DNA of 64,000 bases from Octopus vulgaris (Eukaryota): NCBI GenBank assembly GCA_951406725.2, contig OX597829.1, forward strand, positions 38,130,001-38,194,000, written 5' to 3'. The notes below the pieces were generated by a model. The model worked only from the letters and a program-made list of their open reading frames with translations. It did not search any database and was not told the origin of the DNA. A program made the position numbers and the translations under genes. Every line of letters begins with the position of its first letter. Position 1 is the stretch's first letter. This document shows positions 7,831 through 59,634 of the stretch, in pieces.

Positions 7831-8101
7831 CTTGTCTTCCACCAGATCTGTGCAACATCTCACTTGCACCCAACAGTCTAGTCAGTAGCTTGGAAACCGC
7901 AGGCCAGCCCAGCAAGCCAACTTGCTTAGAGTGGAAGACGTTGTCGTACCTGATTGAATGACTTGTGTAATATGCTTCTACGCCGCTCAGATTCGCTTCG
8001 ACTGGTCACATCGCAGCTTTACACCGACTGTCTTCGTAGCCAACTTGACGCTGACTGATTACCTTGCCATCTTCACACTATCTTCGTAGCCAACTTACGC
8101 T

Positions 8102-8552
8102 GTATCTTTTCGGTTTGAACGGCAGTTTTTTAAAAATAATTTCCACGTAGCTAAACACTTTTAAACTTCGTATACTGGTAGAATGTGTTTATAAAACATC
8201 CTTTTCTCTTGGCTTTACTGAGAAAATTCTATAGTTTGTAAGATATTTGTTGTTTTTTTTCTTCAATTTCAGCAATTTCAACCAATCAATGACGTCTATT
8301 GAGGTGAAAACATTCTGTGCCGTATGAAAATGTCCCTCGTTTAAGAAACAGATTGGGTTTATTTACATTTGTGAAGAAAAAAAGATACCCTTCCCCCCTA
8401 ACCCTAACCCTAACTAACTAACCTTAACCCTAACTAACCCTAACCCTAAAATAGATTGAAATGCAATAGATCGATACTAGGGTCATAATTATGGGTGACA
8501 ATTTCATATGACACCGCTAGAAAAAAAACTGCCGTTCAAACCGAAAAGATCC
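8102..8552 (+). mobile_element. MITE family M1, copy 1
   Basis: About 28-bp TIRs (G[G/T]ATCTTTTCGGTTTGAACGGCAGTTTTT ... AAAAACTGCCGTTCAAACCGAAAAGATCC). Degenerate 8-bp TSD CTTACGCT/CTAACGCG. Internal CCCTAA repeats. Confidence 0.9.
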
Positions 8553-9027
8553 CTAACGCGATCTTCTAACTGTTTGTTTACGTTGCCATCTTCACACTCC
8601 GCGTGCTTTTCGTTACGGACTTCACACACCGCGTTCTTTACATCAAAAACTTCACACTCCTCGTTTTTTGTTTTTGACTTCACCAACTGACACTGCGCGT
8701 TCTTTTACCACTTCAAATTGTTCACCTCACAACAAAGAAAAACGTGCAGCATATTTCAAATTAGTCACATGATCAACAACATTATTTCTCCTTCGTAACA
8801 ATAGCTTTAGTAACTGCAGGAACGACATGATTATATATTATGGATTAAACAGACCACATCAGTCCTTCCCAGTATGAAAATTTAATGAACAACTGTCTTC
8901 ATAGTATTTCTTGCATTTAGTCACCAAGGTATCATTAGAAAATGCAAGAAACAAGGAAACGCTTTAAATAGACATTTTTTTTGGAGAGGCGGAGAAGTGT
9001 GCGAAAAGGGGTGGTAGTATTATTTGA

Positions 9028-9494
9028 TTGGCAGAATCGTTAGCACGCCGGGCGAAATGTTTAGCGGTATTTCGTCTGAGTTCTGCCGCTACGTTCTGAG
9101 TTCAAATTCCACCGAGGTTGACTTTGCTTTTCATCCTTTCGGGGTCGATTAAATAAGTACCAGTTACCCACTGGGGTCGATGTAATCGACTTAATCCGTG
9201 TGTCTGTCCCTCTGTGTTTAGCCCCTTGTGGGTAATAAAGAAATAGGTATTTCGTCTGAGAAGGCGGCGAGCTGGCAGAAACGTTAGCACGCTGGGTGAA
9301 ATGCTCGGCGGTATTTCGTCTGCCGCTACGTTCTGAGTTCAAATTCCACCGAGGTCGACTTTGCCTTTCATCCTTTCGGGGTCGATTAAATAAGTACCTG
9401 TTACGCACTGGAGTCGATGTAATCGACTTAATCCGTTTGTCTGTCCTTTTTTGTCCCCCTCTGTGTTTAGCCCTTTGTGAGTAGTAAAGAAATA
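9028..9494 (+). mobile_element. Tandem or nested SINE S1 copies
   Basis: Two S1 bodies (about 9028-9245 and 9261-9494). The 15-bp direct repeat GGTATTTCGTCTGAG lies at 9066-9080 and 9246-9260. Confidence 0.9.
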
Positions 9495-9708
9495 GGAATT
9501 TCTTGATCAAATTTAGATAGTAAGGTGTAAGGAAGTAAATCTTTTGTAAGCTATCATTTTGTAAACTACTTATTACCTGAAACTACAAAAAAAATCCCAC
9601 TTAAACATATTGCTTTTTAAATGTTTCCTGTTCTTGTCTTTTTCGACAACATACACGCCAAGATCCATACACCTTGCGCGCGCGCGCACTCATATACACA
9701 CAGATATA

Positions 9709-9932
9709 TATTTCTTTACTGCCCACAAGGGGCTAAACATAGAGGGGACAAACAAGGACAGACGAAGGGATTGAGTCGATTACATCGCCCCCCAGTGCGA
9801 AACTGGTACTTTATTTATCGACCCCGAAAGGCTGAAAGGCAAAGTTGACCTCGGCGGAATTTGAACTCAGAACGTAACGGCAGACGAAATACCGGTAAAG
9901 CATTTCGCCCGGCGTGCTAACGTTTCTGCCAG
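9709..9932 (-). mobile_element. SINE S1 copy, slightly 5'-truncated
   Basis: Reverse complement of the S1 sequence, flanked by CAGATATA on both sides. Confidence 0.9.
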
Positions 9933-11691: not shown

Positions 11692-11857
11692 TTTTACATT
11701 TGACGGATATTTGTCCTCATCTTATTTGTTGTTAACACAACTTTTCGACTGTTATACCCTCGGGCCTTCATCAGGGGTCTTGGGGGAAATTTCGAACTTG
11801 GGCTCTCATTCCTAAGGTTTTTTTTCAATGTTGTTGTCGTTGTTGTTGTTTTTGTTG

Positions 11858-11935
<78 letters not shown>

Positions 11936-12090
11936 TCACTGCCTGGAATCGAACTCGAAATCTTGGAGTTGAATACTACTACTACTACTACTACTAAAAA
12001 AATAATGACAATAATAATAATAACAACAACAACAACATCGAAAAATACCTTAGAATGAGGTTCGAAATTTCCCCAAGATACCTGATAAAT
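11692..12090 (-). mobile_element. Hammerhead-tailed palindromic element P1, copy 1 (right arm truncated)
   Basis: Same architecture and junctions as 29765-30340. Degenerate minus-strand CTGATGA...GAAA core at about 11734-11778. B-box reverse complement GGAATCGAACTC at 11945-11956. Confidence 0.75.
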
Positions 12091-12701
12091 GTATTAGTGT
12101 TCGACTAAATATTTCAAAGCGGTACCCCAGCATGGCCAGAGTCCAATGACCGAAAAAAGTAAAAGCTAAAAGATAAAAACATACATATGCACGCACATAC
12201 GCTCGTACGTACATGTACACGAACATTTAAATACATTTAAATATCTTACTTAATCTGACAAAAGATCATAAATTTTGTGGGTACGAGAAGTGTAAGAATC
12301 GCTCCACTACGATGTGACGTAAGGGATAAAAAAGCAAGGGACGTAACTAATTATTGTCAGTTATTCTTTAACGCACACTCGTCTTGTATACTATATAACA
12401 TCGGATATTTATTAGTCATACAGACGATTCTTAAATGTATGTAATAAAGCGAGTTTAAGACGTCAATTAACTAGGTTTACACAAGCAATTAGTGGGTAAA
12501 ACTTCAGTCTTAGGAATACCTAAAATTTAAAAGAAAAAAAAAAAAATGTATCTCAACACAAGGGAGATAACTTTTGTACGTTTTGTATTTGTTTGAAGAT
12601 CGAATGCAAATTGTAGTGGATCTGGTCTTTAAAACGAAATGATGAAAAAAACAGATATGTCTTGGTTACTTACAGTTCAATCAGTATCTCTCACAGAATA
12701 G

Positions 12702-13135
12702 GGATTTTTTTCGGTTTGAACGGCAGTTTTTAACATAATTTCTAGGTAACTAAAAAATTTTAAACTTCGTATACCGGTAGAATGTGTTTATAAAACATCT
12801 TTTTCTCTTGGCTTTATTAAGAAAATTCTATTGTTTGTAAGATATTTGTTGTTTTTTTCCTTCAATTTCTGCAATTTAAACCAATCTCACTGACGTGTCT
12901 ATTGAGGTAAAAAAAAACATTCTGTGCCGTATGAATATGTCCCTCGTTTAAGAAACAGATTGGGTTTATTTACATTTGTGAAGAAAAAAAAAAGATACCC
13001 TTCCTCCCACCCCTAACCCTAACCCTAACCCTAAAACAAATTGAAATGCAATAGATCGATTCTAGGGTCATAATTATGGGTGACAATTTCATATGACACC
13101 GCTAGAAAAAACTGCCGTTCAAACCGAAAAGATCC
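12702..13135 (+). mobile_element. MITE family M1, copy 2
   Basis: Same TIRs as copy 1. Perfect 8-bp TSD CAGAATAG at 12694-12701 and 13136-13143. Confidence 0.92.
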
Positions 13136-13221
13136 CAGAATAGGAATGGAATGGTCAGTCTCCACGGGGTATAGCCTGAAAGGATATGTATTGTCATCTT
13201 TAATAAAATTACGATCGCCGT

Positions 13222-14030
13222 TTTGTCTTTTACTTGTTTCAGTCAGTGAATTACGACTATGCTGTGACCCTACTTTTAAGGATTTAGTCGAGGAAATCTG
13301 CCAAGTACTATTTTCAAAATCTGGTACTTGCTCTATCGGTCTCTTTTGCCAAACTGCCACAGTTCGGGATCTTTTCGGTTTGCACGGCAGTTTTTTCTAG
13401 CGGTGTCATATGAAATTGTCACCCATAATTATGACCCTAGAATCGATCTATTGCATTTCAATCTATTTTAGGGTTAGGGTTTAGGGGAGAAAGGTATCTT
13501 TTTTTCTTCACAAATGTAAATAAACCCAATCTGTTTCTTAACCGAGGGACATATTCATACGGCACAGAATGTTTTCACCTCAATAGACGTCAGTGATTGG
13601 TTGAAATTGCAGAAATTGAAGAAAAAACAACAACAAATATCTTACAAAGTATAGAATTTTCTCAATAAAGCCAAGAGAAAAAGATGTTTCATAAACACAT
13701 TCTACCAGTATACAAAGTTTGAAAGTATTTAGTTAAGTGGAAATTATTAAAAAAAACTGCCGGTCAAACCGAAAAGATCCACATTACGGGAGCGTAAACA
13801 AATCGACAACAGTTGTTAAGCGGTGGAGGAGAACAAACACACACACAGATACACATAGTATATGCATATCTATACGACAGGCGTCCTCACAGTTTCCTTC
13901 TCCCAGATTCACTCACAAGGTATTGGTCGGGTTGGGATTATAGTGAAAGGCACTTGTTCAAAGATCCGCGCAGTGGAACTGAACCCTAAACCACGTCGTT
14001 GCAAAGCGAACTCCTTAACCACACGCATTC
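13222..14030 (-). mobile_element. SINE family S2 copy interrupted by MITE M1
   Basis: Tail TTTACTTGTTTCAGTCA...CTATCGGTCTCTTTTGCC matches 63845-63970. The tRNA-like head is at about 13940-14030. The MITE splits the copy. Confidence 0.7.
13367..13780 (-). mobile_element. MITE family M1, copy 3 (opposite orientation)
   Basis: Same TIRs; the interior is the reverse complement of copy 2. Degenerate TSD ACAGTTCG/ACATTACG. Confidence 0.9.
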
Positions 14031-23593: not shown

Positions 23594-23882
23594 GGTACCT
23601 TCTAAAAATGTTACACGCTAAAATACCTACTGAAAATGTGACATCCCCGAACGTTTAAGGATCAAGATGGAGAACAGATTAAACAACTGGAAAATGAAAA
23701 TAATGCATAAGCAATAGCTCAAATTTATAAAAAAAGGAAAGACAAGACCAGCATTTAACTCTGGGTACTTAGCTAGTTGATACACGTGTCATAGAAGGAT
23801 ATGTCAGTTTCATCCGTTAATGCACTATTGTCTCATTACTGAGATGCTATCATTTGACAGGATGAAGTAACCACATCCTATA

Positions 23883-24383
23883 TCTTTATATATAAAAGTG
23901 AAGTTGTGTGTCTGTCTCCTACGATTTAGATTCCTAACTACTCCCACATTTTGCGGTGCAGTTTAACCAAAACCGGGTATCTTATAGTCGTGATTCATAT
24001 CGAGCCCGTCTGACTACTAGCGCGCGTCAACGATGAGTCTACGATTTTAAAAATAATTTAACATCATTTTTTATTCCATTTTAATGCATAAAATGCATCG
24101 TATGTCGATGGCGGCGGAGTTGGCGTCCACGCTCACAGCTGCACCTGTTTGCTTCTCCCCCTTCCCTCCCTCGTGAAGCTGTGGGGAAGGGAGTGTAAAG
24201 AAATCAACGTCGTAATGCGTTGTGAAGGAAACCAGCGTTCTTTTAGAACAACGACTTCATGGCTTGAAGACACCAAAACAAAATGGCTAAGAAAGCCCGA
24301 ATTTATAAGGGAAGTAACTCTCTAAAAATGCTTATATAGTTATTTCCCTTACAAACCCGAGCAACGCCGGGCGATACTGCTAG
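23883..24383 (+). mobile_element. Non-autonomous Helitron H1 (GC-core subtype)
   Basis: A|TC start, CCCGAGCAACGCCGGG hairpin and CTAG end. Interior matches 32426-32939. Confidence 0.9.
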
Positions 24384-24770
24384 TCTTTATATATAAAAGT
24401 GAAGTTGTGTGTCTGTCTCCTACGATTTAGATTCCTAACTACTCCCACATTTTGCGGTGCAGTGTAACCAAAAGCGGGTATCTTATAGTCGTGATTCATA
24501 TCGAGCCCTTCTGGGTATTAGCGCGCGTCTACGATGAGTCTACGATTTTAAAAATAATTTACCATCATTTTTTCCATTTTAATGCATTTTTTCGCTATTA
24601 TATAAGGGAAGTAACTCTCTAAATATTTCTACGATGAGTCAACGATTTAAAAAAAAATTTACCATAATTTTTTTTCCATTTTTAATGCATTTTTTTTGCT
24701 ATAACTCTCTAAAAATGCTTATATAGTTATTTCCCTTACAAACCCGAGCAACGCCGGGCGATACTGCTAG
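24384..24770 (+). mobile_element. Non-autonomous Helitron H1 (AT-rich subtype), abutting the previous copy
   Basis: TC start immediately after the preceding CTAG; ends CTAG|T. Interior matches 368-778. Confidence 0.9.
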
Positions 24771-24833
<63 letters not shown>

Positions 24834-25642: not shown

Positions 25643-26204
25643 GAGAGAGAGAGAGAGAAAATAAATAATAATTTGGACAGATACGTATAATTCGATTAGC
25701 GTGTGTGTGTGTATTCCTGTCTGTCTTCGTGTGTGCGAGTATCTGGGTCTATGAACGTATCTATACGAATCTTTATATATGCTCTTACTCATTATTTAAA
25801 CACACTAATCTAATTATACGTATTTGTCCAAATTATTTATTAATATGAAACTATCATCCGTATTACGGGCGACAGTGTTGAGAAGAGGGGAAGATGGTAT
25901 TAGACGTCTCGCTGAAAGATATACTTGTACCAGGCAGAAAGGAGTATGTGTGATCACTTCTTTAGAAGACCAGCCAATTCATTCGCAGAATGCGATGTAT
26001 AGCCTGCTTCTTCTTCAAAAAAGATAATCAACAGAATGAATAGGTACCACATAAAACACTTTAATATGAATATTAGATTTATAAGCCTCAAAATTCACTC
26101 CATAACCCCAAGATTCCGAGTTTGATTCCAGCCAGGGATGGAACAGTGTTGATCTTAATTATGATTTGTTCAGACGATGATGACGACGGCGGCGGCGGTG
26201 ACGA

Positions 26205-26795: not shown

Positions 26796-26981
26796 ACTTT
26801 TCGAATTTTGGTAGTAAGCCAGGAATTTTAGAAGGGCGTTAGCCAATTCCATCGACACCAGCGTTTGACTGGTACTTCATTTTATCCATTGCAGAGGAAT
26901 GCAAGGTAATGTTTTTTACACCTGCGTGTTTTGAACTTGGAACGTAGAGAGTCTGAACAGGTGCCGCAATGTCGTAACACC

Positions 26982-27214
26982 TATTTCTTTATTACCCACA
27001 AGGGGCTAAACACAGAGGGGACAAGCAAGGACAGACAAACGGATTAAATCGATTACATCGACCTCAGTGCGTAACTGGTACTTAATTTATCGACCCCGAA
27101 AGGATGAAAGGCAAAGTCGACTTCGGCGGAATTTGAACTCAGAACGTAACGGCAGACGAAATACGGCTACGCATTTCGCCCGGCATGCTAACGTTTCTGC
27201 CAGCTCGCCGCCTT
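26982..27214 (-). mobile_element. SINE S1 full-length copy
   Basis: Reverse complement of S1. Confidence 0.9.
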
Positions 27215-27879
27215 AAACATAGACACTACACCACCCACCATCACCCACCCACGACGACGACGATAATAGCAACAACAAAAACAACAGCTACAGCGACCAG
27301 AAGAAAATTTAACAAGAACACAACCATGTCTCTTTAGAACAATAAATTCTGATTGAGAAAACATAGTCACATTTTGTGGGTGGTGCAGAGTCGATTATAT
27401 CGCATCAAGTACCTCACGGGTATTTATTTTATCGACCCACGAAGGACAGAAAGTAAAGAAGAGTGAAGAATATAAATATTTATATGAATTGTAAGATGGC
27501 GTGGCGAAACCGAATGAAAACAAAAAATAAATTGGCGAGGAATCGAAGAGAAGATTTAGGAATATCTTAGAAGCAAACTTAAGTAAGAGGAACACTCTAT
27601 TAAAGAAATCAATACCTGGGTATTATCAATATTTTTATAATCTGCAGACTTCCTTCGGTGGACAAAAATATTGATTAGGATGAAATGGATAGATGCACCA
27701 GAATGTTATTAAATATGTGCAAGATAACACAACGTGTTTGGTAGACTGTAAAAACCAAAAAAAAGAGAGAGACAGGGGGGGGGAGGAACAGGAGCGAAAA
27801 AGAAGGAAAAAGAGGAGTGAAGGAGAGGGAAAAGAGGGCTCGAGAAAAAGAGAGGGGGAGAAAAAGGAGAGAGAAAGGT

Positions 27880-29690: not shown

Positions 29691-29764
29691 ACCAACAACA
29701 ACAACGAAGATACAAAAAAACAAATGATGATATAGTTCTATATTTAAGAGATGAGGAATCACGT

Positions 29765-29925
29765 ACATTATTTACATTATTTACATTTGACGGATATTTG
29801 TCCTCATCTTGTTTGTTGTTAACACAACGTTTCAGCTGATATACCCTCCAGCCTTCATCAGGTGTCTTGGGGAAATCTCGAACCTGGGTTCTCATTCCTA
29901 AGGTATTTTTCCACGCTGTTGCTGA

Positions 29926-29959
<34 letters not shown>

Positions 29960-29964
29960 ATTAC

Positions 29965-30035
<71 letters not shown>

Positions 30036-30073
30036 TCACTGCCTTGAATCGAACTCGAAATCTTGGAGTTGAA

Positions 30074-30126
<53 letters not shown>

Positions 30127-30340
30127 AAAAATTAATGATAATAATAATAACAACAACAACAACAACATCGAAAAATACCTTAGAATGAGGTTCGAAATTT
30201 CCCCAAGATACCTGATAAATGCTGGAGGGTATATCAGCCGAAACGTTCCGAAACGTTGTGTTAATAACAAACAAGATGAGGACAAATATCCGTCAAATGT
30301 AAATAATGTAAATAATGTAAGCAATGTAAATAATGTAAAT
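29765..30340 (-). mobile_element. Hammerhead-tailed palindromic element P1, copy 2
   Basis: Inverted arms at about 29765-29912 and 30168-30340. The spacer holds microsatellites and a B-box fragment (reverse complement GAATCGAACTC at 30046-30056). Confidence 0.8.
29821..29866 (-). ncRNA. Minimal (Penelope-type) hammerhead ribozyme motif
   Basis: Minus strand reads GACAC-CTGATGA-A-GGCTG gagggtatat CAGCT-GAAA-CGTT-GTGTT. The CUGANGA and GAAA cores are intact, stems I and II pair, and helix III is palindromic. Confidence 0.7.
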
Positions 30341-30342
30341 GA

Positions 30343-30396
<54 letters not shown>

Positions 30397-31228: not shown

Positions 31229-31680
31229 GTCACTACGGTAGTCTACTAAATATTTTTCTGATACAAGAAAGTTTCATCTGTAGAGTCGTATACTTCTCGT
31301 TTCAACCATTTTTTTTACTTTCAATTCTTTAAACCCCGAAGAATTGAGCTAGACACCTTAAACTACAAAGGCCACACGAGATAAAGAGGAAGCCTCTTGG
31401 TGGTCAGTCGAGTTACAAGAAGTAGCAAACAATCTCAAACAAATCACAGCCGTCCTAAAAAAGGAATACTTAAAAAAAAAAAAAAATGCAGTTTATGGCC
31501 TCTTTTATCTTTTATTTGTTTCAGGCATTCGACTGCAACCATGCTGGGATATCTTCTTGAAGGGTCTTGTCGAAAAGATCACCCCAGTACTTTTTTTTTT
31601 TTAAAGTCTGGTACTTACTCTGTCAGTCTATTTTGCTGAACCGCTTAATTACGGGGAGTAAACAAACCGACACCGGTTAT

Positions 31681-31913
31681 AAGGCGGCGAGCTGGCAGAA
31701 ACGTTAGCACGCCGGGCGAAATGCGTAGCCGTATTTCGTCTGCTGTTACATTCTGAGTTCAAATTCCGCCGAGGTCAACTTTGCCTTTCATCCTTTCGGG
31801 GTCGATAAATTAAGTACCAGTTACGCACTGGGGTCGATGTAATCGACTTAATCCGTTTGTCTGTCCTTGTTTGTCCCCTTTGTGTTTAGCCCCTTGTGGG
31901 TAGTAAAGAAATA
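31681..31913 (+). mobile_element. SINE S1 inserted in an S2 copy (about 31500-31680)
   Basis: Full S1 sequence with GGTTAT on both sides. The left flank matches the S2 tail. Confidence 0.9.
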
Positions 31914-32029
31914 GGTTATCAAGGGGAAGTGAGAGACAGACGCAACACACACACACATACATACACACATGCAGATATATACATATATATATATACATAC
32001 ACACACAAACACACACATATATATACATA

Positions 32030-33112
32030 CGAGGTCTGCTAAAAGAAGTATCGGAAACCGTTGTTATGGTAACGAAATTAAAGTACGTAGAGTACAGCCG
32101 CTTGGCACACATTGACCATGGACTCTGTTGCGCATGCAACTAAGTTATAAAGTTGTTTATAAAAAAAGTGCTTAGAAATAAAGTGTGTAGAATGTGGTCA
32201 CCTTAGAAAGAAGATCAGATTTCAGCTGTGCAGGATCTCCTTGGTTGTGTCGAGGAAAACGAAAAAAATTTTGAAAATGGTCATAACAAGTGACAAATCG
32301 TGGGTCAATGGCTATGAACCCGAAACCAAGGCAAGAATCAAATCCCACTGGAAAGGAACAAAATTTCAAGACATCGCGAGGAAATCCTAGAGAATGCGAT
32401 GCGGCAGCTGCTCGTTATTGCAAAATCTATATATATAAAACTGTAGTTGTGTGAGTGTCTGTCCCCTTCGATTTAGATTCCTAACTACTCCCACATTTTG
32501 CGGTGCAGTTTAACCAAATTCGGGTATCTTATAGTCGTGATTCATATCGAGCCCGTCTGAGTATTAGCGCGCGTCTACGATGATTCTACGATTTTAAAAA
32601 TAATTTAACATCATTTTTTATTCCATTTTAATGCATAATTTTTTCGTGTGTCCATGGCGGCGGAGTTGGCGTCCATGGTCACACCTGCACATGTTTGCTT
32701 CTCCCCCTTCTTCCCTCCCTCGTGAAGCTGTGGGGAAGGGAGTGTAAGGAAATCAACGTCGTAAAGCGTTGTCAAGGAGACCAGCGTTCTTTTAGAACAA
32801 CGACTTCATGGCTTGAAGACACCAAAACAGAAATGGCTAAGAAAGCCCGAATTGGCATCTATAAGGGAAGTAACTCTCTAAAAATACTTATATAGTTATT
32901 TCCCTTACAAACCCGAGCAACGCCGGGCGATACTGCTAGTAAAAAATAAAATAAAAAAGAGTTCCAGGAATCTTTCCATCAAAGGAAACGACACTGGATA
33001 AAGTGTGTGGCTTCAGAATGGGGACTACTTTGAAGGGGATTAAATGACAAATTGATACGAGTTGTAGTTTTCTTTTTATAGCACCAATTCCAATAGTTTT
33101 GAGCAGACCTCG
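32030..33112 (+). mobile_element. Internally deleted mariner element, interrupted by a Helitron
   Basis: TA-flanked TIRs CGAGGTCTGCT... and ...AGCAGACCTCG. Peptide relics TSDKSWVNGYEPETK and WIKCVAS..GDYFEGD* match mariner motifs. Confidence 0.85.
32426..32939 (+). mobile_element. Non-autonomous Helitron H1 (GC-core subtype)
   Basis: A|TCTATATATATAAAA start, hairpin, CTAG|T end. Confidence 0.9.
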
Positions 33113-36838: not shown

Positions 36839-36849
36839 TCTATATATGG

Positions 36850-39515
36850 GAAAAAAGTCGAGGTCGAAAATGCTAAAATAATTTTATAAAAAACATTTCA
36901 GTATCGGTTTCGGTCATTGACACTTTTTCAACTGTAAGTATGGAAAACAATTAAATTTTGGAAAAATTAAATGAAGAGTTTTTTAAAAGAATATTTGCAT
37001 AGTATTCAAATACAAGGGACATTTTCCTTGTTTCTGCCTGTCTCTGTCTCTCTTGTTTACTCTTGTGGATTCGAGGTCGTTGTAAATTCTTGACAGGGAA
37101 GAAGAAGAAGAAGAAGAAGTAAAGACGAACAAGAAGAAGAAGAAGTAGAAGAAGAGGAAAAAGAAGAAGAAGAAGAAGAGGAAAAAGAAGAAGAAGAAGA
37201 AGAAGAAGAAGAAGAAGAAGATGAAGAAGAAGAAGAAGAAGAAGAAGGAGAAGAAGAATACGGGAGTGCCATGATAGTAGTAGAATGTTAAATGGTCAAG
37301 TGCCCTGAAAGTGACTTGTTGTGGATGGTAGTTGTGATTGAATTCTTGAGATAACTCTTTTGAATGTTTTGTTTATAATATTTGTGTAGGTGTTATTCTA
37401 AACAACAATAGTGGTAAAGTTAGGAAGGAGGTGGTGGAGAGACAAAAGACGGAGAAGAAAGAGAAAGAGAAGGGAGAATAAGAAGGAATGTAGATGGTAC
37501 GAAAGTAGTAGGATGTTAAATGGTTAAGTGACATAAAAGTGATTCGTTATGGTTTATAGCAGTGATTGGGACTGTTTTTTAATGAATTCTTGGGTATCTC
37601 TTTAATGTATCATTTTTAATATTTGCGTGTGTGTCTCTGTTATCCTAAGGTCGTGGTGAATATGTCGTTTGTTGTAGATGCGTTCAAAAAGGGGTCTGTA
37701 TTTTGTAATAAAGAGAGTCTCTTTACTAATTCGTTGGCTACAGGTTGTATCGTCCCTGAATTGGTAGAGGGGAAAAATTCTGAAGCTTGGATTTTTGTTA
37801 TTGGCGCAAATGTCGATGTGTTGGCTGAATGCTATTTTTCTGTTTTGGGGAATTTAGATCTGGGATCTGTGCAGAGCCATTCTTTTACGTAAATTGTTTT
37901 TTGTTTGGCCTATGTATTGCTCTTGATACCCAGAGCAGGTTAGTGCGTATATTAGGTTCTCCGAAGCACATGTGAAGTTGCTTTTCACTGTGAAACGTTG
38001 TCCCTATTTGAAGGAGAACTCTGATCCCTCAATTAAATTGACGCATATTCCACAGTTGGGTCTTCCGCATTTTCTTACTGACGGCTTCTGTGTTGTTGTT
38101 GAGCGTCTTCGGGCTTGTGTTAGGAGACTTTTCATAGATTTGGGCTGTCTCTTGCTTTTTATGATGGTGTGTTTTTAGAGGATTAAGTTCATTCTGTGGT
38201 CCTTTTTTAGCAGGGGAATGTTTTGAAGGATGGTGTCGAAGGCTTCATTGTTAAGAGGGTTGTGTGTGGAGATGCATGGTAGGGCTTTTGGTTGTAAATC
38301 CTTCTTTAATTTTGATGTGTCTGAGTTCCTGGATGTTGAGTTGGAGGGCACGTTGAAAGCATATGTCAATTAGTGAAGGTGGGTAGTTCCTGGTGATGAG
38401 TGTATCCTTTAGTTCATGTAGTCGTGTGTTTCTGGCGTTTGCATTAGAAACTATAGTACATATACTTTTTGCTAGGTTGAAGGGGATATTCATTATGGTG
38501 TGTCTGGGGTGGCATGTGTTGAACGGTAGATATTGCTTGGAGTCCCTGGGCTTATAGTATATATCTGTTTCTATTACGTTGTTAGATTTCTTAATGAGGA
38601 TGTCAAGGAAGGGAAGTTGTTGATGGCTATATTCCATCGTGAATTGAATGTTTACGTCAAGTCCATTTATAAGTGCTTGGAATTCTTTAAGCCTCTCTAT
38701 ATTTTTATGCCAAAGAATGAAACAGTCATCCATGTGTCTCATCCAGTTTTTTTTTCTATGCAAAGGGAGAATGGGCTGCCGTATTTTCTAGAACATTACA
38801 ATAAAGACTAATTTCAAGATATCCCATGACTAGGTTCGTTAAGGAGGGGGGGGGGCATTCTCATACCCATCGCAGTCCCCGATTTTTGTCGATAGAATTT
38901 GTCTTTGAAGACAAAGTAGTTGTTCTCTAAGAAGAATTTTAGCCCTTCTATCACGAATTCGTTTTTGATGCGATGTGGGAGTTCGTTGGCGTAATTATCT
39001 AGCCAGAATTGAATTGCCTCTATTCCTAGGTTGTGGGGGATATTGGAATAGAGGTTGATTACATCGAAGGACACTAGTAGGTTTTGTTTATTGTTTCAGG
39101 AGCATATTCAGGTCGTCCCTTATATAGCTTTTGACACGCTTGAGGAATGGATTTAAGAAGGTATCTTAAAAGTTACTGAGGCTGTGGGTTTTGCATGCGG
39201 GACCTGCTATTATAGGTCTCAATTTGAGGTCATTAGGAGTAGGGATTTTGATTATTATGTCTGTGGCTATCTTGCATTGAGTTACTTATTTTCTCACTTT
39301 TGTGTATCTTGGAAATATCGTAGAATTGACTGGTTTTACTTTTGAAATTGGTCATATAATCATATTCTTTGTCGGTGAGCCCTTCTCTGTATAGGTTTAA
39401 CATGGATTTTAGGTCTCTCATTATTTTCTGCTGACTGTAGTGTTGTGTCTTTTCATAATATGTTGTGTCTTCCAATATGGATAGTACTAGAGTTATATAG
39501 AAAACCGTGTCCATT
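36850..39515 (-). mobile_element. Penelope-like element relic (RT plus GIY-YIG endonuclease)
   Basis: SFDVINLYSNIP, QKSGTAMG, WMRHMDDCF and LPFLDILI. The GIY-YIG region at about 37860-38070 reads CGRPNCGIC...TCASENLIYALTC...YIGQTKNNLRKRM. Frameshifted. Confidence 0.92.
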
Positions 39516-39569
39516 AAGACAATTGCACACCCTTTATTAGCCTATCTCTATAATTGAACCAAAATAATG

Positions 39570-43651: not shown

Positions 43652-43805
43652 ATGTATGCATGTATGTGTAGGCATGCTTCTATTCCAGAAAAGCTTGCTT
43701 AACATGCGTTCATAAAATTGTATCTAACTGTAAATTGTAAGCACGTTGAAACGCTTATGCGTGAACGTAAGTCAAAGCGTACAGGTTCTCACATTCATAA
43801 TAACT

Positions 43806-44038
43806 ATTTCTTTACTACCCACAAGGGGCTAAACACAGAGAAGACAAACAAGGACAGACAAACGGATTAAGTCGATTATATCGACCCCAGTGCGTAACTG
43901 GTACTTATTTAATCGACCCCGAAAGGATGAAAGGCAAAGTCGACCTCGGCGGAATTTGAACTCAGAACGTAACGGCAGACGAAATACGGCTACGCATTTA
44001 GCCCGGCGTGCTTAACGTTTCTGCCAGCTCGCCGCCTT
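43806..44038 (-). mobile_element. SINE S1 full-length copy
   Basis: 17-bp TSD TCACATTCATAATAACT at 43789-43805 and 44039-44055. Confidence 0.92.
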
Positions 44039-44524
44039 TCACATTCATAATAACTTGCACGCAGCATGTGAACCCATGCACTTGCATAAATGTACACATG
44101 CATAGACAACGGCTCGCATGACTACCAAGTTGATGCTTTAAATTCCAATGAAAAGGCCTTGTATCTGAGTTGAGTTGGAGAGACCAGCTCGTTTTGTTAT
44201 TGATGAGCAAATTTAAGATATAAAACCAAGATCATACACATGAATGCATACATGCTTATTGAATACATAACACATGGGCGCACACACAAGGCATACATGC
44301 ACACACGTACATGCTAACATACATATCATATACATATATGCATACAACCACGCATACATTAACCGAACTCTGTTATATATCTAGAATTATGCAGCTTGAA
44401 GAGTCACCAGCAAAGAAAATTTCTATTAATAGCTGTTTCTGATATTGACAACAGTCGTTTATATTTGTTGTTGTTGTTGTTATTGTTGTTGATGTTGCTT
44501 TTGCGATGTTTGAGATGCTGCTGT

Positions 44525-51689: not shown

Positions 51690-53851
51690 AAGATTGTGTG
51701 TTGACAAAAATTTATAAAGGGTGGTACATGTCAGAACTATCTTTTGGATTTCATTGGTGCTAGGTTTACCAGGTGTGTTTTCTAGAAACTTTTGAACACA
51801 CTTCTTTACGAGGCCTAGTGCTCGTATCCCTGCTGGAATAGTTTGGTTTTCCAGTTGCCACATCCTGTTTATCTCTGTTTCAAGATCCTTCTACTTGGCA
51901 AGTTTTGCACACTCTTTTACTGAAGCATTTCTTATTTCTTTATTGCCCACAAGGGGCTAAACACAGAGGGGACAAACAAGGACAGACAAACGGATTAAGT
52001 CGATTACATCGACCCCAGTGCGTAACTGGTACTTAATTTATCGACCCCGAACGGATGAAAGGCAAAGTCGACTTCGGCGGAATTTGAACTCAGAACGTAA
52101 CGGCAGACGAAATACTACTAAGCATCTCGCCCACCGTGCTAACGATTCTGCCAGCTCGCCGCCTTAGGCATTTCTATCAGACGGTAGAGTCATGTTGAAG
52201 AGTAAGCAGGTCTTGCTTTTAAAATCTTTAATAATAATATCAGGATGGTTTGCATTATTAGTACGATTTGTGTGAATGGTCTCAAAGGATTGTTACTCCT
52301 TCAGTTTCAGTTACTGGTTGTGGTTTGTGTCCATATAAGTTTTCTGTATGTTCTGCATTATATTGTTTGCTTATGATCCAGTGGACGTGTTGCCCCAACC
52401 CTATCGTGTCTGATCTTATATTTAATTGGTGTTAGCATGGGGTGTCCTGATATTATATGGTACACTGTTTCAAGCTGTACGTCACACATCTTGCATTTGG
52501 GGTCTGCTACGTTTCCGAAAATATATGCCTGATAATTCCTAGTACAGCGGCTTTGGTCTTGAGCAACACAAATAAATCCTTCCGTTTCCCGAACTTCCCA
52601 GCCACTGATGGGTTTGGGCATCGTCTGCCTACATCAGCGCCTAGGAAGCGAAGTCGTAATTAGCCGTGTAGAGGTTTTTGCTGCTGTCTTTCTCTAAATG
52701 GCATTAGACCATCTGACTTTGCCTTGCCTCTGAAGACTTTTGCTGCTTTAGTTGGAATTAGATCAACTTCATTAGTAAGCTGTATGTCTTCGGTTCTTAG
52801 TTCTTTCCTGTACTCTCCAGTACTTTTCCGCTTCTTTGAATACAGAGAAATTCTTTTGTCTTTTATGATCTCTTACTAACTTCATTATCCAGTCATTGGT
52901 GCTCTCTAGGTACGTTTGCAAGCCTGTTGTAGTTGTTTTGTATGACAGTTCTAGTAGGATTAGCCCTCCTCCTCCTCCTCCTTGTCTTGATAAATATAGG
53001 CGATCTACGTCTGTTTTGGGTCGCTACATTTTATTGACTGTAAGAAGTTTTCAAGTTTTTATGTTCATTCTCAGGGGATCAGAAAAGTTCCAATTAATGA
53101 TGTCATAACTGTATTGAACCTCTGGTACAGATAACGTACTTGAAACGGATTTTAGAATTTAGCTCTATTTTCAGGATCAGCCTTACTCTTCTGCAGAAAT
53201 CTTTTCGTATTTTGTTCTTCATTTGAATATGTTTAATTCCATCACCTTCGTTTATGTAAAGATATTTATAGATGCCTTCTGTATCTAACTCATGTTTGGT
53301 TGTATCTATATCGAGTTTAACGGATAGTGTCTTTGTTAGTTTCCCTCTTTTAAACGTTGCTTTGGCGCACTTGTCAATGCCAAATTCCATGCCAATGTCA
53401 TTGTTATATTGCTTCACATTTGCTAGATGTCCAAAATCTTGGTCCTTTTTAGCGTACATTTGAGGTCATCCATAAAAAAAAATGCTAAAGGGCCTCATTG
53501 CTGCTGTTCATCTTATACTCGTATCCTGTGTTGCTGAGCTTACTTGATATGAAAATGAAAGCAAAGCAAAAGAGGAGAGGGGAGAGTGAGTTGCCTTGAA
53601 ATTTTCCGCAATTAATTTCAAGATTATCTGACTGTATGGCTCCTTTGTTATGGCTTAGGAAAAGAGCTGTACTCCATTTTGACATGCCGGCTCTTTAACA
53701 ATTAGATATTTTGGAAGGCATTTTGCAAATTTCTAGGTCTTCCAATATCCATTAATGTATTATACTGTCATAGGATTTAGATGTGTCTCTTTGGACTGAT
53801 AGTATTCTAGAATCATCTTATCAATTAATAGTTGGTCTTTGCACCCATATG
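51690..53851 (-). mobile_element. Second R4/Dong-like LINE relic (RT C-terminal half, CCHC, REL endonuclease)
   Basis: GCKDQLLI, FQGNSLSPLLFC, DIGMEFGIDKCAK, ETEGFICVAQDQ, CKMC...HIISG, NHPDIIIKD and EINRMWQL. Confidence 0.9.
51933..52167 (-). mobile_element. SINE S1 inserted in the R4/Dong relic
   Basis: 8-bp TSD GCATTTCT at 51925-51932 and 52168-52175. Confidence 0.92.
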
Positions 53852-56925: not shown

Positions 56926-59634
56926 TGTAGTGATACTATAACGGCGCGCGCGCGCGCACCGTCCATTTTCTATTTCGCGCGTGCTGGTGCCTTCACCAAG
57001 GCACAGAAAGGAAGGGCCCTCTCGCGCATGCGCGAACCACCGGAAGCACGACCCTGGCCAAGGCAGGGGGATCGTAGAGCGTTTGACCGCTAGCAGCAGC
57101 AGCGGCGACTTGGGACGGCAGCGATTGAACGCGACGGTCACGCATATTTTCTCTCCGTTCGAACTTGCTTCTAGCAGTCCTTACCAAAGGCCTTTAACCA
57201 AATTGTTGCAGACCAACATCGTCTCCATTGTTCGACGCCATCTTGAATCCGTTTCTGTTTTTGGCGGCTGAACTTTGTAAATATTACAATCGATTAACTT
57301 TCAGCCTTGCGCGCCCAGAACCAAGGACATCAGATAACACACTTATTGTTACTGTTACCAAGAAAGAGAATAAAGTAGTATATATATATTTTACGTCTGC
57401 GTCTTGTTGTTTCTGACTGGTAGAATTCTGGATTATTAAAGCAACGGCTAGTGATTGCTTTCTTGTACCCCGAAAGTACAAGAGAAGACACTCACACATC
57501 AAGCTCGTTACACTGGTGACCCCGACGTGATTCTGGTTTAAAACCAGAGATCACTTATCAACAAAGAAATCCAGTTTTTCTGCGAAGTCGGAACACGATT
57601 TAACTCTACGCATTCATCTTTCGACGACTTGTTTCCGGCCACCACAAACAGTTGTAGAAGGAGCCTTACTTATTCTACAGCCATGATGACGGACGCCATC
57701 ATATATTCGACCCTTTTCTCCACCTTCGTCATCATCATCGTCGTCTTTCTACTTCACGTCGTCGTTGTCTTCGTCGCTATCATCACTACGAACGATGTTG
57801 TCCCAAGTCCACTACAGTCGCCACCACCACCGTCGCCTTTCAACACCGTCGACCTCCAGCAAGATGTACATAGCAACTCGCGGAAGTTTGGTCCACTTGC
57901 CGTTTGTGCATTAGCACACCAAGAATTCACAGCCCAGCACTATCTACGAGATTCTTCTGTTCCAGTTAACATGTCACAGCATCGAAGCTACAACCGCTAC
58001 ACATTGTGTTCAACAGGCATCTGCATTTTGTGATTTCAACATTTCTGTTACAGAACGAACTGCTATTGTGCTTCAGGCTATTACAGACTGGTAAATTAAT
58101 TCTTGTCTGGAATGGCCTTGAGAGACATTTTTTCTATGCGCTGTATTTTTTGTATTTTGCTCGCATTCACCTTGTATGTATTTCTGTCGCACACACGTAC
58201 ACACACATAAATGCTCTCTCTCACATACATACGTCACACATGCTTTTCTCGCTTGTTTGTTCCATGCTAAATTTGCTTTTTGTGGACACCCCTCATTTCT
58301 ATAGACCCTAGGTCGGTCACGTACACATAGAGAGGGTTGTTTGTCCATTATAACGCGCCAGCATGTCATACTTTTGTTCCTGTGCGAACGAGGCATATAA
58401 TCGCTCAACCACTGGCATATTCTTGCTGTTTTTCGGACTGGCAAGCACTATTGCATTTCATGCGCCTTGCTTCGCATCGTGTATTGCCTTGTTTTTTGCA
58501 ACACGTTTGCGCTAGCTTAATTCTTTTCCCGACTCATAGGACGTCGGATGTTCACATGCGCTGCGCCATGTTTAGGCGTAATTATTTTTCCCTGTTAGAC
58601 CACTGTTGGTCACGTAATTAACAGAAAATTATCTGTGTCGCGCATCACACCAGCATGTTTGCACTTTTGCCTTTTGTGTTACTAGCGAGCTTCTGTCAAT
58701 TCCATTTCCTCTCCTGCAGCAATTGATTTAACTGCTATTTTGCAGGATCAACCACCTTTGGAGAAGTTGGATTTAATTTTCGCCTAGGTTCATTAACTGT
58801 GAGTTTTGCTTTCCCTCCGCTTCCTACAGCGGAAGGCTCTATACTTTGTGACGTATACACTTTCATGCATGCACTCTTGATTTTTGCTCATTGAGTATTT
58901 TTTCTCTTTTTCCTTTAGTAAATTTCTTGTGTATGTTATAAATTTTGCCATTGTATTATTGTGTGCTATTTGGTTATCTGGTGTCCACCTTGAGTTTTGC
59001 AGTCACTACAATAAGTTTCCTTTCGTGCGTACGCACTGGAGGGGAGCCTTGTAGTGATACTATAACGGCGCGCGCGCGCACCGTCCATTTTCTATTTCGC
59101 GCGTGTTGGTGCCTTCACCAAGGCACAGAAAGGAAGGGCCCTCTCGCGCATGCGCGAACCACCGGAAGCACGACCCTGGCCAAGGCAGGGGGATCGTAGA
59201 GCGTTTGACCGCTAGCAGCAGCAGCGGCGACTTGGGACGGCAGCGATTGAACGCGACGGTCACGCATATTTTCTCTCCGTTCGAACTTGCTTCTAGCAGT
59301 CCTTACCAAAGGCCTTTAACCAAATTGTTGCAGACCAACATCGTCTCCATTGTTCGACGCCATCTTGAATCCGTTTCTGTTTTTGGCGGCTGAACTTTGT
59401 AAATATTACAATCGATTAACTTTCAGCCTTGCGCGCCCAGAACCAAGGACATCAGATAACACACTTATTGTTACTGTTACCAAGAAAGAGAATAAAGTAG
59501 TATATATATATTTTACGTCTGCGTCTTGTTGTTTCTGACTGGTAGAATTCTGGATTATTAAAGCAACGGCTAGTGATTGCTTTCTTGTACCCCGAAAGTA
59601 CAAGAGAAGACACTCACACATCAAGCGCGTTACA
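56926..59634 (+). mobile_element. Young non-autonomous LTR retrotransposon (2.7 kb)
   Basis: TGTA...TACA LTRs at 56926-57512 and 59050-59634, 4-bp TSD AGTC, PBS at 57514-57532, polypurine tract GGAGGGGAG at 59038-59046. No gag/pol motifs seen inside. Confidence 0.97.
57514..57532 (+). promoter_or_regulatory. Primer-binding site complementary to the tRNA-Trp 3' end
   Basis: TGGTGACCCCGACGTGATT is the reverse complement of the metazoan tRNA-Trp end AATCACGTCGGGGTCA-CCA. It begins 1 nt after the 5' LTR. Confidence 0.9.

Follow-up and report, generated by a model that had tools for sequence, protein, structure and literature searches.

SINEs are in practice defined as parasites of LINEs, and those mobilised by LINE enzymes usually end 3' in short tandem repeats and are flanked by a target-site duplication. 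To judge from their title, Ohshima and Okada reportedly described three tRNA-derived SINE families from octopus in 1994; these come from the same animal group as the family analysed here and have tRNA-derived heads, as this family probably does too. The third of them, whose name we take to be OK, could be this very family, which may already have been catalogued as an octopus SINE in 1994. The octopus families OR1 and OR2 have been cited as CORE-SINEs. Unlike these, which have a CORE of about 60 bp behind the head, our locus passes into (TAA)n about 16 nt after the B box, and only microsatellite lies between head and tail.

A Pol III promoter combined with a hammerhead ribozyme is already known from SM-alpha of Schistosoma. 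The octopus family is similar to the SINE-like retroposons SM-alpha and Sj-alpha in that a hammerhead is joined to a Pol III-type head, here a B-box remnant. However, the schistosome elements have canonical hammerheads, their multimeric transcripts are cleaved and they are often tandem, whereas the octopus ribozyme is of the minimal Penelope type and the family is dispersed. The optional tail and the inverted unit belong to the octopus family, and the SM-alpha passages we draw on name no mobilising partner. Metazoan non-LTR retrozymes, for which the designation of a new SINE type has been considered (PMC8969392), are also comparable, being non-coding, a few hundred bases long, equipped with a type I hammerhead and proposed to derive from Penelope elements (bioRxiv 10.64898/2026.07.22.740005, PMC7229834). 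They differ in having tandem units and circular RNAs, whereas the octopus family shows no tandem arrangement in the stretch analysed and has a tRNA-like head; the words “tRNA” and “promoter” do not occur in bioRxiv 10.64898/2026.07.22.740005.

Features of Penelope-like elements are a tail of 30-40 bp, confined to one end, and an inverted 5'-truncated copy (PMC8557442); the tail has been traced to two internal start sites of reverse transcriptase (RT), and ATT targets are preferred (PMC11167929). The octopus family resembles the pseudo-LTRs of Penelope and Poseidon elements, as described in PMC4209133, PMC8557442 and PMC11167929, in the bulged base, long helix II and palindromic 15.2-16.2 of its ribozyme, and also in its optional 30-40 bp tail, inverted 5'-truncated unit and AT-rich targets. 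Unlike those elements, it has no RT/GIY-YIG reading frame, and a microsatellite spacer and B-box head stand where the reading frame would end. Our literature search, which covered few subscription papers, returned neither a tRNA-headed SINE mobilised by Penelope nor a hammerhead in an octopus SINE; SINEBase or an octopus genome supplement may list the family.

Anatomy of the locus

The stretch of Octopus vulgaris DNA that was analysed, which we call the window, is 64 kb long. We find that the locus at 29734-30340 (copy 1) is a single rearranged insertion, in inverted-repeat form, that belongs to a non-coding family of very high abundance. Read along the minus strand, copy 1 consists of the 3' remnant of a tRNA-like head (30030-30075), which includes a B box (30054-30046) and lacks an A box, a (TAA)n(CAA)n spacer from head to tail (30029-29926), and a pseudo-LTR-like family tail (29734-29911) made up of about 50 nt 5' of the ribozyme core, the ribozyme itself (a minimal type I hammerhead motif, 29821-29866) and up to 92 nt past the predicted cleavage site. 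The original prediction had named three of these parts on the minus strand, namely a B-box fragment (GAGTTCGATTC at 30056-30046), the spacer with the tail after it and a complete minimal hammerhead within the tail, and each is confirmed by the sequence. It also had the tail end in (TGTAAATAA)n; these repeats are present at 29764-29785, but the family continues 30-39 nt further, through an optional extension (29734-29763, minus strand) to 29734. The window contains four tail matches in all.

On the 5' side of the head lies a second, inverted and 5'-truncated unit (30076-30340, plus strand) composed of (CTA)n, (TAA)n(CAA)n and a tail with a damaged ribozyme. An inverted tail copy had been placed at 30168-30340. 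This copy is confirmed (83.5% over 170 columns), although its start lies to the left of that position and it has its own repeat run from 30076. It carries an 8-nt deletion, a 10-nt duplication and the core CUGAUAA, in which G8 is changed to A at 30217. A second window copy (copy 2, 11693-12091, minus strand) has the same head remnant and junction, an inverted arm that is cut in the middle of the ribozyme, an older tail and a decayed ribozyme. Copy 1 itself has the long end with the 3' extension; the inverted arm and copy 2 lack the extension and have the short end. No RT or GIY-YIG reading frame is found at the locus, where the open frames are only repeat-derived. Nor are there head-to-tail tandem units; both window copies are inverted, and in the strict sense of a retrozyme, which requires tandem units, the suggested retrozyme-like nature does not apply.

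Copy 1 is flanked by a 13-bp direct repeat on the plus strand (29722-29734 and 30337-30349, the right copy running into (AT)n), of which 8 bp do not overlap the element ends. Direct repeats of at least 13 bp arose by chance in 33 of 5000 random pairs, and the 15 that were listed all lie inside microsatellites. Copy 2 has no target duplication. Target-site duplications had been expected to be lacking, and for copy 1 this is contradicted by the candidate duplication of 8-13 bp.

The window holds several other repeats. Three copies of 430-460 bp (8101-8557, 12708-13136 and 13362-13781) with terminal inverted repeats of about 28 bp and internal, telomere-like (CCCTAA)n are MITE-like. The tail matches 13 nt at 8359-8371, 12966-12978 and 13511-13523, but this match falls inside this unrelated inverted-repeat element and is attributed to chance. 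Another repeat, with partial tandem copies and an end formed by a short hairpin and CTAGT (23882-24780, 32425-32940 and 368-659), looks to us like a non-autonomous Helitron. A repeat of 240 bp, with about eight copies that are 82-96% alike (1005-1263, 9029-9932, 26972-27220, 31680-31919, 43795-44055 and 51933-52166), probably represents another SINE family. Lastly, a 587-bp direct repeat, 99.3% identical and 2.1 kb apart (56926-57512 and 59050-59634), is either an LTR pair or a recent duplication.

Family abundance and 3' end classes

To describe the family we used contigs from 4 of 24 public runs (three organisms) aligned to 29700-30090 and evaluated over 29700-29911. The aligned contigs numbered 40106 in run X1, 19578 in X3, 14482 in X4 and 4450 in X12, which may be an RNA run, and depth starts at 29734; these counts measure abundance rather than copy number, and the high abundance is that of the tail. 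The tail-bearing family is short, non-coding, dispersed and high in copy, the copy level again being that of the tail. An Octopus bimaculoides UniRef entry (P0003) is a translation of the tail at 86% identity, and therefore the family occurs in octopus; the entry and the window frame both read on as SSSLKYRTI through the 3' extension. Protein look-ups of the repeat-derived frames gave one match and three blanks. Tail or head patterns were absent from metagenome, viral and prokaryote contigs, and the small matching shares in six metatranscriptome runs are not counted as evidence.

The contigs reveal two classes of 3' end, lying 53-62 and 92 nt past the ribozyme cleavage site. The long class is marked by loose ends at 29734 in 229, 208, 65 and 12 contigs of the four runs. 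The short class is marked by loose ends within the repeats at 29764, 29767 and 29773, with 213, 219 and 166 contigs of mixed flanks in X1 and 186, 147 and 121 contigs in X3, where the ends at 29767 are partly copies that differ by one repeat unit. At both classes, and in all four runs, the flanks are unrelated and AT-rich (agreement 0.4-0.5). Given that one class ends at the repeats and another 30-39 nt on, the element does not simply end in (TGTAAATAA)n. These ends also bear on whether the family is an ordinary SINE mobilised by a LINE, with (TGTAAATAA)n as a LINE-type 3' repeat and the hammerhead as a passenger. Copy 1 does combine 3' tandem repeats with a candidate target duplication, but a large class of copies ends past the repeats at one fixed base, and a full inverted unit on the 5' side together with a conserved minimal hammerhead are Penelope features; we consider a LINE-mobilised origin very improbable.

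In run X12, three contigs at 29865 run upstream of the ribozyme into diverged sequence like the 5' part of the tail, and could come from a related family or an autonomous partner.

A minimal hammerhead with a conserved core

The motif at 29821-29866 was identified with a descriptor and a pairing check. It has a helix I of 5 bp (one of them G-U), the core CUGAUGA with C3 at 29861 and G8 at 29856, one bulged base, a helix II of 6 bp, GAAA and a palindromic ACGU (29830-29827), with cleavage predicted between 29826 and 29825. Compared with the description in PMC4209133, it has the CUGANGA and GAAA-UH core, helices I and II, the bulged base after A9 and the palindromic 15.2-16.2, and it fits the metazoan minimal hammerhead consensus given there. 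With both helices specified, the descriptor matched the window once, at the tail, in agreement with the ribozyme originally proposed; 2 of 200 block shuffles contained one match and none of the 200 contained two. The bare core pattern is uninformative (7 matches in the window versus 4.4 expected). Rfam returned neither a hammerhead nor a tRNA match, the former neither at the gathering cut-off nor at E<=10. Minimum-energy folds lack the active ribozyme fold and are no better than shuffles (z -0.3 to -1.6), as is to be expected of a minimal motif.

Across the four runs, variants that reach at least 5% in the ribozyme are confined to three CpG positions, loop II, the free core position N7 and 29834. 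None affects C3, U4, G5, A6, G8, A9, A13, A14, A15.1 or U16.1. CpG decay at G12, C15.2 and G16.2 amounts to up to 13%, and the family majority at 29834 restores the G10.1-C11.1 closing pair of helix II. Minor variants of at least 5% are found at 0 of 32 non-CpG core and helix positions versus 14 of 146 non-CpG positions overall (P of about 0.04, post hoc). A core that varied across the family would have spoken against the original prediction; among the family contigs it is invariant at the 5% level outside CpG and N7.

The inverted arm is different. In none of the four runs does either its G8 change or its 8-nt deletion appear among the variants of at least 5%, so the composite is rare and we reject its being an amplified subfamily. 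Since a G8 change abolished cleavage in the experiments of PMC11167929, the ribozyme of the inverted arm is probably inactive. We likewise reject a cis dimer of the two ribozymes of copy 1, which lie on opposite strands, the second with G8 changed to A. In the fold predicted for a read-through RNA, 44 of the 46 bases of the ribozyme are paired to the inverted arm. Between separate ribozymes, a 6-bp intermolecular palindrome is predicted at -5.7 kcal/mol, and for minimal motifs PMC4209133 reports no activity as monomers and low activity as dimers.

Comparison with Penelope-like loci

As controls, we used a scan with a pattern consisting of the ends of the copy-1 ribozyme, which gave 120 metagenome stretches; 119 loci were read, with 94 distinct contexts. 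As the pattern was written from copy 1, the likeness of the ribozyme is built in, but that of the surroundings is not. Sequence resembling RT or GIY-YIG lies upstream on the same strand in 26 of the 33 contexts of control family A and stops about 70 nt short of the core; the corresponding counts are 1 of 39 in family B and 3 of 22 in the others. One family A endonuclease reached a Pfam E-value of 0.008, which is below the cut-off, and the RT pieces have no Pfam score; a family A RT piece matches the relic in our window described below (E=2.6e-5). With Pfam scores below threshold and coding sequence in only 1 of 39 family B contexts, the Penelope identity of the controls rests partly on motifs and similarity.

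Where control loci contain two ribozymes, the layout is divergent as in copy 1 in 12 of 15 cases (10 of 13 distinct contigs) and same-strand in 3. Family B also ends in two classes past the cut site, at 46-55 nt (13/36) and 82-88 nt (13/36), and less clean classes are seen in family A, at 73-79 nt (9/31) and 108-113 nt (8/31). An A-B box pair upstream of the ribozyme was found in none of the 94 control contexts, which makes the head peculiar to the copy-1 family. As a separate observation, in two control loci (L011, 2161-3110; L012, 479-1570) two minimal hammerheads lie on one strand at a distance of about 0.9-1.1 kb, and neither locus matched Penelope coding sequence; these could be another non-autonomous tandem element.

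The window itself includes a broken Penelope-like relic with RT pieces (36840-39541, minus strand) and a GIY-YIG domain (38003-37857, E=2.5e-5). The presence of such a relic 6.5 kb from the locus had been correctly noted, but its terminus has no similarity to the tail (at word size 4, the best blastn match had E=0.1). We rejected it as the partner, as its 3' end has another ribozyme-like motif without tail similarity. With U3 and A8, that motif (near 36935-36900) shows the covariant core given for Cercyon elements in PMC4209133. An autonomous partner with the same tail was found neither in the window nor in the contig collections scanned.

The proposal that the element borrows Penelope machinery is well supported at the level of the family, by its end classes, inverted 5' copy and minimal hammerhead, but not by the nearby relic. 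The copy-1 family displays the Penelope signatures of two end classes, an inverted 5'-truncated unit on the 5' side and a tail at one end. Based on the two end classes, the conserved core, the same type of hammerhead behind GIY-YIG-like genes of other animals and the mostly inverted layout there, mobilisation by a Penelope-like element, and not by LINE enzymes, appears likely. We are highly confident that the family is real, that its ribozyme is conserved and of the Penelope type, and that its insertions bear Penelope signatures.

Evidence for a tRNA-like head

A B box by itself is weak evidence, as 25 such 9-mers are found in the 64-kb window. ARAGORN called no tRNA, and the head remnant matches phage tRNA-Gln only weakly (E=3). 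The B box is present in both window copies; neither has an A box, and the break falls at one and the same base in both. We know of an octopus repeat that we assume to have an intact tRNA-like head before the same tail, and we do not count it as a test. Of the 896 rows of loose ends, 24 were listed, and 8 of these lie on the head side. An A-box segment near the tail is seen in two of the listed rows only; the A and B boxes do not occur together on any one sequence examined, and none of these sequences is a full-length copy. The remaining head-side rows include two tail indels, one diverged relative, one of no assigned kind and one that resembles what we take to be a library adapter. The first A-box row is an X12 contig that runs from 29868 into an A-box segment in sense, with one mismatch to the consensus of PMC8969392; segment and tail are joined across 4 nt of microhomology, which is how the junction would look if a head-spacer-tail unit had undergone an internal deletion. 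The second is a consensus built in X4 from 18 mixed ends; its last part is a matching A-box segment, in the position that a head would take after an inverted piece of tail. In addition, the tail is immediately preceded by (TAA)n in 8 X3 contigs. No T4 run is present in 342 sense bases, versus 80 of 88 control contexts (mainly two families) with one; this is weak evidence, as 3618 of 5000 shuffles (72%) are also free of T4.

Relative to copy 1, the arm of copy 2 is identical at 57 of 57 positions and its head at 45 of 46, private mutations included. The tails, in contrast, agree at 119 of 132 positions (p=0.004, Fisher test), and that of copy 2 has 10 substitutions relative to the majority sequence of the family where copy 1 has 2. 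Copy 2 is probably a chimaera, formed by conversion or template switch, whose head came from a copy-1-like donor, and it therefore provides no independent proof that head and tail are linked. We rejected it as such proof because its arm and head, but not its tail, are shared with copy 1. The two copies are 18 kb apart, and their near-exact sharing of arm and head is probably a case of local gene conversion or template switch. Elsewhere in the window, a tRNA-like head fragment at 26104-26138 (plus strand), 83% like the head at 30030-30075, is followed by other sequence, and may belong to a sister SINE family or a decayed copy.

These observations must be weighed against the possibility that an autonomous Penelope-like element inserting in (TAA)n left the tails as its 5'-truncated ends, here within an unrelated fragment of a tRNA-derived SINE, so that no Pol III-driven hybrid family exists. 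Penelope-like elements favour ATT and microsatellite targets (PMC11167929, PMC8557442), copy 2 is not independent, the related head at 26104-26138 lacks the copy-1 tail, and the family contigs, evaluated over 29700-29911, give no reading of the 5' side. However, the four window tails and the 8 X3 contigs start at about the same point beside (CAA)n/(TAA)n, and random truncation would not give such a common start. Moreover, an A-box segment appears in 2 of the 8 head-side rows listed, and none of these (30 letters each) is recognisable as coding. We regard truncation as unlikely.

A headless non-autonomous Penelope derivative, that is, a monomeric non-LTR retrozyme expressed by read-through, with the tRNA-like piece confined to a minor subfamily, seems to us quite unlikely. 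Non-LTR retrozymes are described as non-autonomous Penelope derivatives that are often monomers (bioRxiv 10.64898/2026.07.22.740005), and this favours such a reading. The window has no tandem units, though, the ribozyme is minimal and not canonical, and A-box segments occur beside the tail in runs of two organisms. For the tRNA-headed element originally predicted, the B box in both copies and the A-box segment in two of the listed loose-end rows are favourable, while copy 1 lacks an A box and copy 2 is not independent. Overall, a tRNA head of the family is moderately supported by these sequence features, and we think there is a good chance that a tRNA-headed SINE is the family's normal form.

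Proposed mechanism and implications

We propose, as the probable explanation, that the family consists of a tRNA-derived Pol III head, (TAA)n(CAA)n and the pseudo-LTR of a Penelope-like element, and is copied in trans by the RT/GIY-YIG protein of that element. Pol III would read a monomer from the head of an intact copy through the T4-free body. The Penelope protein would then bind the pseudo-LTR part and nick AT-rich or microsatellite DNA, and reverse transcription would begin internally, either 53-62 or 92 nt past the cleavage site, which would give the two end classes. In copy 1, synthesis may have stopped within the head, with loss of the A box, and a second, 5'-truncated unit may have been added in the opposite orientation, as is usual in Penelope insertions. 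Copy 1 would then have decayed and is probably inactive; the lost A box and the pairing of the arm over 44 of 46 ribozyme bases suggest a dead product.

For an autonomous element, PMC11167929 describes uncleaved RNA as the template and cutting by the ribozyme only with the protein present. In the octopus family, too, uncleaved RNA would be the template, because cleavage would part the head from the start sites. The ribozyme would cut poorly as a monomer, and at best as a trans dimer or with help from protein; most likely it is kept as part of a borrowed recognition module.

In its fullest form, our reading is that this is a major octopus SINE family, tRNA-headed and transcribed by Pol III, which has a Penelope-like partner, has swapped the LINE tail for a ribozyme-bearing pseudo-LTR and shows both Penelope insertion signatures; we hold this to be slightly better than an even bet. 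If true, a tRNA-headed family with Penelope ends would extend SINE parasitism to a third retroelement order, and would show that short RNAs are mobilised in trans, and to very high copy numbers, by a Penelope protein. A minimal cis element would be marked by the tail of 180 nt, which could serve as a natural substrate in the Penelope assay already established in vitro. The family also raises the question of what the hammerhead does, given that a monomeric Pol III transcript has no precursor from which to be cut and yet the core is conserved. Lastly, a large class of octopus repeats may be mislabelled.
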